Shown here piece after piece: positions 2,748-25,656 of a stretch of 41,644 bases of DNA. Under the pieces are notes generated by a model. It was given only the letters and a program-made list of their open reading frames with translations. It did no database searches and was not told the DNA's origin. Source of the DNA: a virus. Location: IMG/VR virus record IMGVR_UViG_3300011432_000014. One strand, 5' to 3'. The position numbers were made by a program, and so were the translations under genes. Numbering within the stretch: the first letter of the stretch is position 1; the number at the start of each line of letters is the position of its first letter.

Positions 2748-4341
2748 ATTCGAGTTTTTTGGTGTTTTTAAACTCGTAGTACTTATCGAAGTTATATTTT
2801 GCCAACTCCCTATGCCAGTACTTATCGAAATATCTTTCAGGAAATGCTTGCTTGAACCACTTCTCAACAAATGAAAAGTAAATGTCGAATAGCTGATTCT
2901 TCTTTGTAGGTGTCATTTCCATTGACTCCTCAGCCCTATCAATCATCTTGATTGCGGCTTCGAAAAATGCTTGATAACTTCCACGCTTTATATTGTTCAA
3001 CAATTTTTCAAGTTCGGGGTCGTCTGTAACAGTAACCCATTCGAGAAGTATCTGCTGTTCTTCGTAAGCTTTACGATTAAAAATATGACCGCACTCTTCA
3101 CCTGTTTCTGGAAGTACAATGTCACACCTCATCTTTGCAGCATGTATAAAGCAACCACACGAAGGACATTCTTTCATAGGAGCTACTCCGTCCTTTGGTA
3201 TTTCAGGATTATTGAAAATCCAATGCCAGTCCCTCTCTTCGCACCAGTCACCGTGAGTAATGCAATTGCCGCCCATATCTATAATCTGAAACCTTGATTT
3301 CGGCTTCAAATCATAAGGGTAACGATATTGGTTCTCATTGCACCACTCTTGGTCACATGGTCTGCTACCTCTACCGCACATCTGCAACCAGAGTGCCATT
3401 GAAGTAGTAGCTCTATTAATTATAACTGTTTCTATTGTTGGCTCATCAAATCCAAGAGTCGCAATCCCAACATTACAAAGTACAGCATTAGGCGTATCGT
3501 GAAACCATTTAAAGATTTCCCTGCGCTCGTTTTCTGGAGTTGTTCCGTCAACGTGCCTACATGGTATATCAAATAACTCGAAATTATCTTTAACAGCAAT
3601 ACTGTGCTCAATGTTTACATTGAAGACGATTGCTTTTTTACCTCTTGAAAACTTTTTGTATGCAAGATAGGTGCTCATTACATATTTCGTTCTCATGAAC
3701 TCTTCAGCCATTGATGAAATATCGTAATCACCAGTTGAGGCAATTGCAAGCTTCGCTTTGTCAATTACGTCCTTCGGTGAACGAGTAATGTTCTGTGCAA
3801 GATTGCCGTACTTAATTAACGTCTTGATACTTGGGCCAGTAGACAAAACAGAATAATACTTATTCATCGGTTCTCTCTTTGAACTCGATATTGGAGTCGC
3901 TGTGAAACCAATGATGTACTCTTTAGTAAATTGTCTGTGTAATTTATTGAAGCTCGCATTGTGCGCCTCATCAATAATTACTAATCCGATGTTCATGTCT
4001 TCAGCAACTACTTGGTCGAAACGTTTGCTTACGGACTCAACCATGCCAATGTAAGCTGGTGCAAAGTCAACCCATTTCGTACCTGCCTTGATAAGACTCA
4101 TTGTCTCACCAAAGATGTTTTCCATTGTTGCTTTTGTCTGATACATCAGCTCTTCCCGATGTACGAGAATCAATGTCTTCTTTCCTGTTTTGTGATAGTA
4201 ACGATGTGCAAGTTTACTGAACATTACGGTCTTGCCGCCGCCTGTAGGTAATTGTGCTAATACATTTTTGTACTTACCAAGACTGCGGATAATATCCTCA
4301 ATCTGGTCTTCCTGATACTGTCTGTCTCTAATTTGATGCAT
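2737..4341 (-). CDS. Superfamily-2 DEAH-box DNA helicase with C-terminal Cys-cluster
   Basis: Walker A AQLPTGGGKT, motif II VIIDEAHNAS, motif III GFTATP, Cys cluster CPSCGC...EECGH. Confidence 0.85.
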   Translation of the reverse strand: MHQIRDRQYQEDQIEDIIRSLGKYKNVLAQLPTGGGKTVMFSKLAHRYYHKTGKKTLILVHREELMYQTKATMENIFGETMSLIKAGTKWVDFAPAYIGMVESVSKRFDQVVAEDMNIGLVIIDEAHNASFNKLHRQFTKEYIIGFTATPISSSKREPMNKYYSVLSTGPSIKTLIKYGNLAQNITRSPKDVIDKAKLAIASTGDYDISSMAEEFMRTKYVMSTYLAYKKFSRGKKAIVFNVNIEHSIAVKDNFELFDIPCRHVDGTTPENERREIFKWFHDTPNAVLCNVGIATLGFDEPTIETVIINRATTSMALWLQMCGRGSRPCDQEWCNENQYRYPYDLKPKSRFQIIDMGGNCITHGDWCEERDWHWIFNNPEIPKDGVAPMKECPSCGCFIHAAKMRCDIVLPETGEECGHIFNRKAYEEQQILLEWVTVTDDPELEKLLNNIKRGSYQAFFEAAIKMIDRAEESMEMTPTKKNQLFDIYFSFVEKWFKQAFPERYFDKYWHRELAKYNFDKYYEFKNTKKLEYAN

Positions 4342-4863: not shown

Positions 4864-4901
4864 GTTAACGTGGTGTTAACGATATGTTAAACAAATGTTA
4901 A
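4864..4901. promoter_or_regulatory. Four GTTAA cores at exact 11-bp phasing
   Basis: GTTAA starts at 4864, 4875, 4886 and 4897, between the methyltransferase stop and the next gene start. Confidence 0.6.
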
Positions 4902-5590
4902 AAAAAATCAATTCTTTGCTGAGTACATTTCTTAACAAAGTTGTCAATTCCAGATAAGTGATGCTGTTCCTGCAGCTCAACAACGTCAATACTAAGATGA
5001 TAACGCCAAGCTGCAATAACTATGTTATGTGAGCCTCCATGCGTATCGAGTATTCTTGGTCGTTGACCTAAACTTAATATCTCCCTGTCAAACAAATCTT
5101 TAAATATAGCATCGTATAGATAAACAGGCTTTTGAGTGTCATGTATCTTCTCATGCTTAACATCTTTTTGCCTGCTCCTTTTAATCATCTTTGGAGCTCC
5201 CTCAAAAGAAGTCCATGCAAATTCGCAGTCTGCAAAGGACAAACCTTCAGGTTGCTCTTTGTCCCAGAGATAGAACTTTTGGCAGTTTCCAAGAAATTCG
5301 CCAAAGTAATTTGCTCCCCAGACAATTTGGTTTCTGGTTACGTAGAAAAGCTTTTCCCAATAAAGCTCTTTTGGAGTTTCGGAATCCCAAGTTCCACGTT
5401 CATGCTTAATCTCTTTAAGCTGTTTTTTGGTTTTACCCAAGTTCATCTTTGTAACGTCAATGCCATAAGGCGGGTCAACTATTCCAAGATGATACCACTT
5501 CCAATCAATCTCATTCATCCACTCGATATTATCCCCAAGTATAAATCTTATTGTATTATTTTTTTGTCCTTTGAATTCTACTATTTTCAT
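4898..5590 (-). CDS. DNA methyltransferase (amino-MTase, N6-adenine or N4-cytosine, beta-class motif order)
   Basis: Motif IV IVDPPYGI near the N-terminus, motif I-like ILDTHGGSHN near the C-terminus. Confidence 0.8.
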   Translation of the reverse strand: MKIVEFKGQKNNTIRFILGDNIEWMNEIDWKWYHLGIVDPPYGIDVTKMNLGKTKKQLKEIKHERGTWDSETPKELYWEKLFYVTRNQIVWGANYFGEFLGNCQKFYLWDKEQPEGLSFADCEFAWTSFEGAPKMIKRSRQKDVKHEKIHDTQKPVYLYDAIFKDLFDREILSLGQRPRILDTHGGSHNIVIAAWRYHLSIDVVELQEQHHLSGIDNFVKKCTQQRIDFF

Positions 5591-5595
5591 AATTT

Positions 5596-5900
5596 AAGTT
5601 TTAAAAATAATATCCAGTTGTAGACACAACCGGACTTTTCGAAAAACAAACATAACCTTGAGTAAAAACAAAAGGATATATATATCAGCAATAACAATAT
5701 TTTAAAAATGAGTCCTTACAAGTAGAAACTTCAGGACTGTACTATAAACCATCATAAACAATGACAAACATAGCAATATTTTTAAAGAGTCCATAAATGT
5801 AGACACATCAGGACTGACCTTTCATAAACAATAAACAAGAGACAAAACAAAGCAATATTTTAAAAAACCTCCAGATGTAGAAACAACAGAGGGATATGTC
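5596..5900 (-). repeat. Four tandem ~80-98-nt units, each a hairpin with conserved apex GT(G/T)TCTAC followed by TTTTTAAAATATTGC
   Basis: Hairpins at 5613-5634, 5711-5738, 5788-5815 and 5868-5893; lower stems differ but stay paired. Confidence 0.8.
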
Positions 5901-5913
5901 ACAAACCATCGCA

Positions 5914-6201
5914 CTAATAAGCGATTTCAAATTCAAAAGGTTGAACTAAATTTGGTTTATTCATAATCAAAATAAGGCTATCTATAAATTTAATAACGTG
6001 TTCTGGTAACGGATAAAATATTTGTGGAATACTATAATTGTTCCAATCAACTTTAACTGTATCTACTCCTACCATACATTCAAACCCTGTCACTCTTTTC
6101 ATTGCAATTGCAACTGGACAAGAAAACGCAATAATAGCATTTCTATTATTCATTAAATTTAACGATGTACTTATATCTTCTTGAGTTACCTGTATTTTCA
6201 T
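5914..6201 (-). CDS. Small conserved hypothetical protein, paralog of 40323..40604
   Basis: MKIQVTQEDI...CPVAIAMKRVTGFEC...PFEFEIAY aligns with MKIQVTQGII...CPIAVAVRAETGFDC...PFEFEL. Confidence 0.75.
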   Translation of the reverse strand: MKIQVTQEDISTSLNLMNNRNAIIAFSCPVAIAMKRVTGFECMVGVDTVKVDWNNYSIPQIFYPLPEHVIKFIDSLILIMNKPNLVQPFEFEIAY

Positions 6202-6250
6202 AAAATAATTTTTAAAGATTGTCCAGCTATAGAAATAACCGGACGCATTT
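6202..6250 (-). repeat. Fifth copy of the hairpin unit, directly upstream of the 6201 ATG
   Basis: Minus strand TCCGGTTAT-TTCT-ATAGCTGGA then CAATCTTTAAAAATTATTTT-ATG. Confidence 0.6.
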
Positions 6251-6289
6251 AAGTATTCCTTGAGAAACGTGGAAAATTATCCACTAAGT

Positions 6290-6751
6290 TTAGAAAGATT
6301 TCCAATACTTACCTATAATAATGTTATCAATAGTCTTTTCGCAAACTCCAAATCCATTAGCTATATCTCGCTTATGAATGTTTAAGTCAAAATACAAATG
6401 CCTTATTTTTGGAATATCTTCATTTTTTAACTTAGAAGTCCCAACACGCTCGCCTAATGCTCTTCTTCCTCTTTCGTCCATATCTCTTACGTTATCAAGA
6501 ATATTACCTATTTCTAAATGGTCTGGATTTATACAAAGTCTATTGTCGCAAATATGTCTTACGTGAATATAACTTTCCAGATTGTCTATATTTAATTTCT
6601 CTATTATAATCCATCTCGAAATAAGTAATCTTCTTTTATTTATCCATCCTCTTGGGTATCCATACGAGTTAAGGTCATTTTTGCAGTTGTAACATTCATT
6701 CTCGTCTATATCTATGTCAAATTGTTTGCCAAGAATTTCTATAACATACAT
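6290..6751 (-). CDS. HNH homing endonuclease (HNH_3-like) with C-terminal HTH-like tail
   Basis: HVRHICDNRLCINPDHLEIGNILDNVRD core; paralog of 39621..40058 (RHTCDNPKCINPEHLISGTQDDNIQD). Confidence 0.8.
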   Translation of the reverse strand: MYVIEILGKQFDIDIDENECYNCKNDLNSYGYPRGWINKRRLLISRWIIIEKLNIDNLESYIHVRHICDNRLCINPDHLEIGNILDNVRDMDERGRRALGERVGTSKLKNEDIPKIRHLYFDLNIHKRDIANGFGVCEKTIDNIIIGKYWKSF

Positions 6752-6772
6752 AGATAAAATGTTAAAATTTTG

Positions 6773-7354
6773 TTAAAAAGGTAAATCATCCATAATGTCG
6801 GCTGCACTATCAACGAGAGTCTTCTTCTCTTCCTGTTTCACCCATTCAAGCTCTTCGCCGTTTCCAAGAATTTCTCCTTTTAATTCTTTGTCTTTTTTGG
6901 CTAATTCAATAGGAACGTCTTGTGTAATGAAACCCAAGCGTCCGTACCTATCTACTTCTCCATCTGGAAGCATGTGCAGTGTCATTTTAAGATACACACC
7001 ACCTTTTTCTCCTTTATATAACCATGACTTATCAATCTTGGTTACATCAATGTCAAGTTTAATGAATCTCTTTTCTTTTTTAGCCTTGTTGATTCTATCT
7101 GGCTGTTTCTTTTCTTCTGCCATTTTTTGGAATTTTGATTTAATATTAGAATTATAGTAACCTCCAAATGATTTCTGGAGTTGAAATTCAAAAAATACTT
7201 CAATAGGCACATTTTTATAAATGTGAGCTGTTGTATCCTTCATCACTATGGAGAGTACCTCCTCACGTGGCTTATAATTTATTTGGGTTATGAATGAAGA
7301 TTCTTTCTCGTTCAAAAAAATTATAAAGTTGCCATCAACTACTGTTTTTTTCAT
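6773..7354 (-). CDS. KTSC-domain / single-stranded-DNA-binding protein fusion (start refined to ATG at 7354)
   Basis: KTSC-like INYKPREEVLSIVMKDTTAHIYKNVPIEVFFEFQLQKSFGGYYNSNIK; C-terminal acidic tail ending DDLPF like the bacterial SSB tip DDDIPF; the ATG at 7354 lies 1 nt after the upstream stop. Confidence 0.7.
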   Translation of the reverse strand: MKKTVVDGNFIIFLNEKESSFITQINYKPREEVLSIVMKDTTAHIYKNVPIEVFFEFQLQKSFGGYYNSNIKSKFQKMAEEKKQPDRINKAKKEKRFIKLDIDVTKIDKSWLYKGEKGGVYLKMTLHMLPDGEVDRYGRLGFITQDVPIELAKKDKELKGEILGNGEELEWVKQEEKKTLVDSAADIMDDLPF

Positions 7355-7355
7355 C

Positions 7356-7835
7356 TTAAAAGGGTAAATAAAGTTCTGTTGTTTGTTTAAGGTATCTTTC
7401 AATTATAGCTTCATTTGTGTAGACAACGTCTGCAAAAACATTATTTCTCCATGCCGCCATAGGAACTTCAATTGAGTTGCCTATGTACAAACAAGTATTT
7501 TTTCTTTTTGTGAAAGTCAGAAAAAGATAATCCATCAATTCCCTCTTACCTCCTCGCATGTTTGTCTTCTCTGGCTTTCCTCTGAGGCTTGTCCACAAAA
7601 AAGAAATGTCTGTGCCATTTTCAACTATTATGAACTTCTCGCAATTTCCGAGTTGCTGTATATACTTATTGGCATTGAAGATTAGCTGATGCTTACTCCG
7701 TTCAAAAAGTAATGCTCTGTCAAACTCTCCTTCTTCGAAAAGTGCAAAATCGTATTTCTTTCTGAAGTCGAATTCAGATTTCTCGTTTTGCGGAATAAAC
7801 CTTATGCAAAAGTCGTTATATTTAACTTCCCTCAT
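7356..7835 (-). CDS. Hypothetical protein
   Basis: 159-aa ORF in the tight minus-strand gene array. Confidence 0.65.
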   Translation of the reverse strand: MREVKYNDFCIRFIPQNEKSEFDFRKKYDFALFEEGEFDRALLFERSKHQLIFNANKYIQQLGNCEKFIIVENGTDISFLWTSLRGKPEKTNMRGGKRELMDYLFLTFTKRKNTCLYIGNSIEVPMAAWRNNVFADVVYTNEAIIERYLKQTTELYLPF

Positions 7836-10112: not shown

Positions 10113-10171
10113 AAGAAGCGCAGGACTCGAACCCACATGAGGTATTTGAATTCTCATTACCATAACTTCTT
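10113..10171 (-). other. tRNA-like fragment (acceptor-like stem plus canonical T-arm, no D-arm or proper anticodon arm)
   Basis: Minus strand AAGAAGT...GTGGG-TTCGAGT-CCTGC-GCTTCTT; only 59 nt, no 17-nt anticodon arm could be drawn. Confidence 0.3.
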
Positions 10172-11997: not shown

Positions 11998-12010
11998 ATT
12001 TTCAATTTTT

Positions 12011-12042
12011 AAAAAAAGGGAGAGGAGTAGAAAAACCTCTCC
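12011..12042 (-). terminator. Rho-independent terminator
   Basis: Minus strand GGAGAGG-TTTTTCTACT-CCTCTCC-C-TTTTTTT, 40 nt after the beta-barrel gene stop. Confidence 0.85.
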
Positions 12043-13050: not shown

Positions 13051-13082
13051 AATTATCAGAATTGAATGACAAATATACTTAA

Positions 13083-25580: not shown

Positions 25581-25592
25581 ATCTTAAAATTT

Positions 25593-25624
25593 AAAAAAGA
25601 GCGCACCGCATTTAAGATGCGCTC
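25593..25624 (-). terminator. Intrinsic terminator/attenuator after the major tail gene
   Basis: Minus strand GAGCGCA-TCTTAAATGCGG-TGCGCTC-TTTTTT. Confidence 0.75.
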
Positions 25625-25656
25625 CCCAAAAATCAAAAATGGACAAATGCAAAGAA

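Follow-up and report, generated by a model that had tools for sequence, protein, structure and literature searches.

The analysed window, a stretch of 41,644 nt, is a near-complete genome of an uncultured phage (41.6 kb, 36% G+C) in which almost all genes lie on the minus strand. Read along that strand, a KTSC-domain gene (6773..7402) is followed by an HNH endonuclease gene (6290..6751), a 95-aa ORF (phrog_19191; 5914..6201), a gap of 323 nt that holds an array of hairpins, a DNA methyltransferase gene (4898..5590), two small ORFs, a helicase gene (4341-2737) and a primase gene (2484-307). The DNA of neither the window nor the array matched any cultured phage. The nearest primases among cultured phages were those of Cellulophaga, Nonlabens and Flavobacterium siphoviruses, to which the primase-helicase is 32-35% identical, and the methyltransferase DNA gave a weak match to Flavobacterium phages; together, this kinship and this match point to a member of the Bacteroidota as the host. 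The array was recovered, identical base for base, in four other independent metagenome contigs. Samples in which this contig occurs are JGI 3300012167 and ENA ERZ27267681, ERZ27267683 and ERZ27267625. A helicase profile search of the JGI metagenomes yielded one close but short contig, and IMG/VR locus searches with the KTSC and 95-aa proteins yielded nothing useful. The HNH gene starts 21 nt past the KTSC stop codon (the interval 6752-6772), and the first hairpin of the window comes after it. In relatives the first hairpin of the family described below directly follows the KTSC gene, so the HNH gene looks inserted between the KTSC gene and its hairpin.

The hairpin array and its strand

All array sequences are given as read on the minus strand, which is the sense strand. 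The initial annotation of this DNA had described four hairpin units in the gap and a fifth before the 95-aa ORF, and this arrangement was confirmed, each unit having a G/T-TCT loop. Hairpin A (GTCCGGTTAT-TTCT-ATAGCTGGAC; 6221..6244), located 45 nt past the HNH stop codon, has a 10-bp stem with two G:U pairs (-13.7 kcal/mol) and an A/U-rich tail (AATCTTTAAAAATTATTTT; 6202..6220) that reaches the ATG of the 95-aa ORF. Between that ORF and the methyltransferase gene, hairpin B (CCCTCTGTTGT-TTCT-ACATCTGGAGG; 5868..5893) is directly followed by T6, with the tail TTTTTTAAAATATTGC at 5852..5867. Hairpin C (AGTCCTGATGT-GTCT-ACATTTATGGACT; 5788..5815) is built of an upper stem, an internal loop and a lower stem AGTCC/GGACT, with the tail CTTTAAAAATATTGC at 5773..5787, and is succeeded by hairpin D (AGTCCTGAAGT-TTCT-ACTTGTAAGGACT; 5711..5738) with the tail CATTTTTAAAATATTG at 5695..5710. 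A decayed copy, CCTT-TTGTTTTTACTC-AAGG with the apex GTTTTTAC, lies at 5656..5675 between D and E. Hairpin E (GTCCGGTTGT-GTCT-ACAACTGGAT; 5612..5635) again has a 10-bp stem with G:U pairs (-13.2 kcal/mol), and its tail is an A/U-rich leader (5591..5611) that reaches the methyltransferase ATG at 5590. The last units had been placed 17-20 nt before an ATG; the distances measured were 19 nt for A and 21-22 nt for E.

C and D are very similar copies, as are A and E. The latter two are linked by a repeat, D4, that recurs in both of their tails and where the methyltransferase gene begins, and their similarity continues into the first codons (ATGAAAATA). One further copy, F, lies outside the slot as a strong terminator (GGAGAGG-TTTTTCTACT-CCTCTCC followed by CT7A5TTG; hairpin 12019-12042, with tail 12003..12042, minus strand); it has the same apex, TTTCTAC, and the same tail as the array, with its stem arms swapped relative to B. 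Loops in the gap are spaced 78, 77 and 102 nt apart, and the hairpins, compared on both strands, gave -6.6 to -12.2 kcal/mol on the sense strand and weaker energies on the antisense strand. The apex GT-(G/T)TCT-AC, at first ascribed to every unit, holds for B-E and not for A, whose apex is AT-TTCT-AT. Likewise, the common tail, T3-6 A4-5 TATTG(C/T), was found after B, C and D, and only a looser A/U-rich form after A and E. Both reported exact matches to the Bacteroidota -7 box TAnnTTTG were recovered as TATGTTTG on the minus strand, one at 5765..5772, 26 nt before hairpin D, and the other at 5647..5654, 11 nt before hairpin E, where it is a candidate promoter for the methyltransferase-helicase-primase genes.

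The hairpin array in the gap is far from chance. Four KTCT-loop hairpins of -7 kcal/mol or lower occur in the gap, compared to a mean of 0.003 and a maximum of 1 in 300 dinucleotide shuffles, and five hairpins with any tetraloop occur there, compared to 0.31 ± 0.57 in the same shuffles. The word GTKTCTAC is found eight times in the window (1.96 expected), four of them in the array, and hairpins A to E all fall within the best 18 of the 855 KTCT loops of the window. When 1.95 Mb of other phage-like loci were scanned, such hairpins stood in tandem only in contigs of this phage itself.

The fold of the gap is markedly strand-dependent, with -71.2 kcal/mol (z = -3.4) on the sense strand and -41.9 kcal/mol (z = -1.55) on the antisense strand. 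Stem positions that depart from Watson-Crick pairing are G:U on the sense strand by 6 to 0 in the window and by 11 to 1 in the relatives, a total of 17 to 1, for hairpins collected with a pattern that allowed G:T at one position; the asymmetry is an independent signal because the hairpins were oriented by their loop motif in a scan of both strands. The earlier observation that A and E hold G:U pairs in the minus-strand RNA where the plus strand would have A:C was correct, and its conclusion that the structure belongs to the minus-sense strand is borne out by these counts and folds. The stems also differ in sequence while remaining complementary, as had been noticed. Inside the window, an A-T pair in A corresponds to G-C in E, a T-A pair in C to A-T in D, and CCTC/GAGG in B to AGTCC/GGACT in C and D, in addition to the swapped arms of B and F. 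In an ungapped alignment of 13 relatives, both sides change in 8 of 11 pairs, and 94.4% of cells pair, as opposed to 78.5 ± 2.0% after shuffling and 22-45% after sliding the partner, a statistic that is inflated because the sequences were picked partly for pairing. From the wobble asymmetry together with the compensatory changes, it follows that the selected object is a single strand, either RNA or single-stranded DNA of that strand.

A hairpin family in related phages and a bacterial chromosome

Syntenic contigs were reached through homologues of the methyltransferase and KTSC proteins. Among these relatives, the interval from KTSC to methyltransferase is a variable accessory slot, which holds a canonical terminator in L139, a tRNA-Ser in L136, a tRNA-like element in L135, two tRNAs and three small ORFs in L137 and L138, and the HNH gene, the 95-aa ORF and the array in the window. 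A hairpin with the consensus AGTYGG-N3-TA-DTCT-TR-N3-CYRACT occupies this slot in several of them, where it comes after the KTSC/SSB-like gene. There are two family hairpins in L137 (whose IMG/VR twin is L248) and two in L249, three in tandem in L222 with stem starts 77 and 59 nt apart, and one each in a second phage type (L243, L245 and L250). L223 also has two, one after KTSC and the other 27 nt before a different (C5) methylase gene. As L223 is a complete genome of 43 kb, it could be seen that these two copies in the slot are its only ones and that different terminators are used elsewhere. The family hairpin is absent from the KTSC-bearing relatives L135, L136, L139, L140 and L141. Relatives that keep both the family and the tandem layout have KTSC proteins that are ~49-59% identical to that of the window.

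The positions of the copies are regular. The hairpin that comes first in the slot lies 17-35 nt past a stop codon in every relative, and 17-45 nt past one if the window is included, the preceding gene being KTSC, HNH or a small ORF (L137, L222, L223 and L249). Most family copies have a U-run within 0-6 nt. It is missing from exactly five, those that end 4-5 nt short of tRNA genes called by the Rfam tRNA threshold or by ARAGORN. In L223, a canonical terminator follows ~30 nt after a family hairpin.

A covariance model, R1, was built from the relatives only and used to search 83 kb of strand. Window copies D (the best match of R1), E and A were among its top four matches, each of them weak when taken alone (~12 bits, with an E-value of ~3). 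Judged by sequence, the window copies are a diverged branch of the family, with the apex TGT-KTCT-ACA instead of GTA-DTCT-TRC. The window gave no Rfam match at gathering score, and region 5500-6350 gave only chance-level matches at E up to 10; in the relatives, the Rfam matches were to tRNA, tmRNA and abiF only. Among the matches listed when IMG/VR was scanned for apex and tail patterns of the window type, there were only chance ones and coding tandem repeats.

The slot and its surroundings hold several other unusual elements. Its tRNA genes are odd (L137:3050-3123 and 3454-3546; L249:3496-3588; L222:5795-5887), one of them having the anticodon AAA. L137 and L249 each contain one 93-nt tRNA called as tRNA-Thr(TGT), that of L137 with ~24 extra nucleotides in the anticodon loop of the Rfam alignment, and both tRNAs of L137 pass the Rfam tRNA threshold; for a third call of 93 nt, in L222, no anticodon could be assigned. 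The tRNA-like element of L135 (3900-4000), directly before the methyltransferase ATG, combines an acceptor-like stem AAGAAGA/TCTTCTT with a T-loop-like motif, GTTCAAGTC, and was not called by ARAGORN; a similar tRNA-like fragment with an AAGAAG/CTTCTT stem lies at 10113-10171 of the window. An abiF RNA motif (50.9 bits, above the Rfam gathering score) is located at L250:5109-5145, ~1.9 kb upstream of the single family hairpin of that contig. Between the helicase and primase genes of L137, a 52-aa Sigma70_r4-like ORF (7072-7230) may encode a small transcription factor, and L131, which is identical to the window over the aligned region, has a 59-aa ORF at the corresponding place.

In a pattern scan of species-representative genomes, three tandem units were found in non-coding chromosomal DNA of a Chitinophagaceae MAG (L232; contig JAIXOJ010000134.1, 7290-7742). 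They lie between a tRNA-Leu(CAA) gene, ~550 nt upstream, and ordinary host genes, and there is no ORF between them. Each consists of TTTGTGTTTTTTGCTTGTTTAATAC, the hairpin and a T-run, and the three agree fully from a point 25 nt before the hairpin, which takes in a U/G-rich arm, and diverge further upstream. Strong family matches were confined to this one of 151 Chitinophagaceae genomes. These units could be small-RNA genes or the remnant of a mobile element. Weaker R1 matches in host chromosomes resemble gene-end terminators that share the loop, such as AGTCCTCAATA-GTCT-TATTGAGGACT-T7. In 400 kb of one Chitinophagaceae genome, AGTC stood near the stem base in 6 of 55 terminator-like hairpins and in 12 of 1238 others. 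The idea that D-UCU is a general terminator loop of the host family was rejected, NTCT loops being present in only 2 of 60 host terminators. Separately, a hairpin AGTCGG(C/A)GATA-GTCT-TGCTGCTGACT was seen inside a sequence block conserved in five Acidobacteriota genomes (Acidobacteriaceae and related; L225, L226, L227, L239 and L242), and L225 gave no Rfam match.

Proposed roles of the hairpins

The best explanation of the family, which we put forward tentatively, is that it provides 3'-end punctuation of the sense RNA: its members may be leaky intrinsic terminators or stabilisers of processed ends that were tandemly duplicated, B-E forming a stacked attenuator. From the structure, strand, family relations and positions of the hairpins, we infer termination, processing and attenuation as follows. 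The units would be diverged tandem duplicates of one lineage-specific module acting in sense-strand RNA, namely a 10-11-bp hairpin with a D-UCU tetraloop, then a U-run and then an A-rich stretch. This module would punctuate the accessory slot of the replication operon, which runs from the KTSC/SSB-like gene to the methyltransferase, helicase and primase genes and also collects tRNAs, small ORFs and the HNH gene, and each hairpin would form or protect an RNA 3' end. A hairpin followed by a U-run would be a leaky intrinsic terminator, while a tRNA 4-5 nt downstream would allow RNase P to release the upstream RNA with a 3' end protected by the hairpin. B to E in a row could attenuate read-through from the upstream genes step by step, with the TATGTTTG box before E restarting transcription into the methyltransferase operon, and any short U-rich RNAs with their ends at C, D or E would arise as a side effect.

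Placement after stop codons, seen for A, B, F and every first-in-slot copy of the relatives, is consistent with this proposal, as is a stem base resembling that of host terminators. The U-tracts of B (T6), D (CA plus T5) and F (C plus T7) fit an intrinsic terminator, and termination would be weak at A, C and E because their U-runs are short or displaced by 1-5 nt. Terminators located ~18-24 nt before the next ATG were also found at 12019-12042 and in the 25581-25656 gap of the window and in L139; partial termination with read-through therefore seems to be the normal style of this phage. The initial annotation had preferred tandem small-RNA genes and had named stacked terminators or a hairpin before start codons as alternatives, and it is these alternatives that fit all copies slightly better. 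Its selection on the sense strand, covarying stems and homologous modules stand; its small-RNA genes are the less likely reading. Several observations do not fall into place under 3'-end punctuation. Diverged phages conserve the D-UCU loop together with its closing pairs, yet NTCT loops are rare in host terminators; plain termination gives no account of this. Nor does the punctuation reading account for the restriction to one slot, the extra terminator in L223 or the gene-free chromosomal tandem of L232, where the lack of an upstream gene to terminate counts against termination.

These same four points, loop conservation among them, keep alive the possibility of small-RNA genes, to which we give a lesser but real chance. 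In this alternative, each internal unit would comprise a Bacteroidota-type promoter, a U/G-rich 5' arm of 20-35 nt and a hairpin terminator, yielding trans-acting RNAs of ~50-75 nt that could be regulators, soak up a loop-binding protein like a sponge or act as a decoy. Two exact TATGTTTG boxes in 323 nt, where ~0.2 would be expected, speak for it, as do TAnnTTTG boxes with one mismatch, which precede B, C, D, E and all three chromosomal units by 21-34 nt; yet one-mismatch boxes are expected in T-rich DNA, TAnnTTTG is not enriched across the window (59 found, 55.6 expected), and neither a box search nor direct reading revealed a good -33 element at the right distance. The recurrence of arrays in a second phage, L222, with start-to-start spacings of 77 and 59 nt, and the three gene-free units of L232 with 25 identical nucleotides before each hairpin are likewise what small-RNA genes would produce, and the conserved loop and single-slot restriction suggest a specific partner. 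Against this, the U/G-rich arms are conserved within arrays and cannot be aligned between lineages (40% column identity), and the duplexes they form with phage translation-start regions are, by energy, no more favourable than those with within-gene controls. Copies that come first in the slot or abut a tRNA have no space for a promoter, and the chromosomal copies, found in a single genome of the 151 and beside tRNA-Leu, may for that reason be a mobile-element remnant. TTGCTTTG is counted with TATGTTTG among the candidate boxes. The sequence TATNTTTGTCATT is common to an array box (5760-5772, minus strand) and a promoter-like site ahead of a gene cassette near 13 kb (13065-13077, minus strand), which hints that both might be real host-type -7 elements.

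A rather unlikely alternative is a cis-acting leader or operator, in which a phage or host protein would read the D-UCU loop and control translation, antitermination or processing just downstream, with B-D as extra binding sites. This would suit the conservation of loop and closing pairs over covarying stems, as well as the position of A, E, F and the second L223 copy 19-27 nt before start codons and of five copies 4-5 nt before tRNAs. An nnnnTTTG box 3-12 nt upstream of several copies adds that the hairpin could be a transcript 5' end. However, neither an ORF nor a tRNA lies downstream of B, C and D, a boxA-like partner element was looked for in vain, and no candidate binding protein co-occurs with the hairpin, which five KTSC-bearing relatives lack. 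It is also conceivable, and in our judgement unlikely, that the array is a multi-hairpin phage RNA that, through its D-UCU loops, sequesters or misdirects a nuclease or RNA-binding protein of the host, in the manner of a CsrB-like sponge or a pseudo-ToxI-style anti-defence decoy, the L232 tandem then being its cellular counterpart or source.

We regard a DNA-level element as quite improbable. An origin, a single-strand priming or initiation signal or a recombination linker for cassette exchange would place the hairpins in single-stranded DNA of one strand beside AT-rich unwinding tracts, and T5A4 tracts and phased TGTTTA motifs are indeed present at the array, which sits inside a replication and recombination module whose slot cassettes (tRNAs, HNH, small ORFs) vary between relatives. 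Single-stranded DNA also tolerates G:T pairs, but a symmetric duplex site is ruled out by wobble pairs that favour one strand 17 to 1, the differing stems within one genome are unsuited to an initiator that binds duplex sequence specifically, and an RNA-level role more easily explains why the hairpins keep a fixed relation to tRNA 5' ends and to stop and start codons. Neutral relics, functionless copies left by recent duplication of a single terminator and gene-start module within the locus, are highly improbable: the close similarity of C to D and of A to E, the repeat into first codons and the already decayed copy would suit them, but pairing has been kept by compensatory changes since duplication, the array is identical in the four independent contigs, and the family and its tandem layout persist in relatives with a diverged KTSC protein.

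Other candidates were rejected. Small ORFs starting from the TTG of the conserved tail (16, 24 and 39 aa, hydrophobic) do not conserve length or frame, and T-rich DNA yields such peptides by default. No tRNA remnants were found in the spacers, which are too short for them, and the loop sizes do not fit anticodon-loop mimicry. Cas12a or Cas13b repeat mimicry was dismissed, the words shared with known repeats being trivial. Integron attC-like sites are ruled out by hairpins that are far too short, and R'/R'' boxes and an integrase were not noted.

The locus thus adds a structured-RNA motif that is absent from Rfam and supported by covariation and strand-specific wobble, with a range that spans little-studied siphoviruses of soil Bacteroidota and, once, a chromosome of the host family. 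One mobile hairpin module punctuates an accessory slot of a replication operon that also houses tRNAs, an HNH gene and small ORFs. Should the hairpins indeed be 3'-end punctuation, they would offer a clean natural case in which gene dosage is set by stacked partial terminators and by 3' ends that RNase P defines, in a phylum with a poorly mapped RNA biology; should the small-RNA or decoy reading be true, the array would be among the first phage small-RNA arrays in Bacteroidota.

Comparison with known systems

Several repeat classes differ from the array in their basic design. A CRISPR mini-array has identical repeats and unique spacers, unlike the differing stems and related spacers seen here. 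Replication-origin iterons are conserved, strand-symmetric duplex sites, from which the array departs by its differing stems and one-sided wobble; the 77-102-nt spacing is also unlike that of known iterons.

CsrB and RsmZ are multi-hairpin small RNAs that act as protein sponges. The array resembles them, as well as pseudo-ToxI, in lining up several hairpins or repeats whose apex is conserved and whose stems vary; unlike CsrB and RsmZ, it carries no GGA motif, and no cognate protein or toxin was identified. Pseudo-ToxI is a phage RNA mimic of a tandem-repeat antitoxin and demonstrates that non-coding phage repeats can act as decoys (PMC3475682). Type III antitoxins and pseudo-ToxI are made of near-identical repeats of ~34-45 nt (PMC3475682), whereas the array units are diverged and 77-102 nt apart, and Tandem Repeats Finder reported no array at the locus. 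Cluster K mycobacteriophages contain SAS and extended SAS elements (ESAS; 17-bp inverted repeats), with 11-19 copies genome-wide that always lie beside a start codon and whose function is unknown (PMC3203893). These too are lineage-specific, imperfect inverted repeats in one orientation just upstream of start codons. The array copies differ in being gathered in one slot (plus F), in that B, C and D have no downstream ORF, and in having no 13-bp SAS-like box.

In T7 early mRNA, intercistronic hairpins are processed by RNase III, and related hairpins that stabilise 3' ends exist. The array is comparable in that related hairpins lie between the cistrons of a polycistronic phage transcript and would come to lie at the 3' ends of processed RNAs; its 10-11-bp stems with a tetraloop are, however, too short for a classic RNase III site, and the processing role proposed here falls to RNase P. 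Intrinsic terminators, including the partial ones of phage operons, have neither the D-UCU tetraloop and closing pairs that the family conserves across phages nor its confinement to one slot, and the family further departs from them in a U-run that is often displaced, and absent before tRNAs, and in four tandem copies with nothing to terminate between them. In common with them, the array hairpins form stable stem-loops on the transcribed strand, and the family combines a sense-RNA stem-loop with, in most copies, a U-run, a position after stop codons and the AGTC...GACT base that is typical of host-family terminators.
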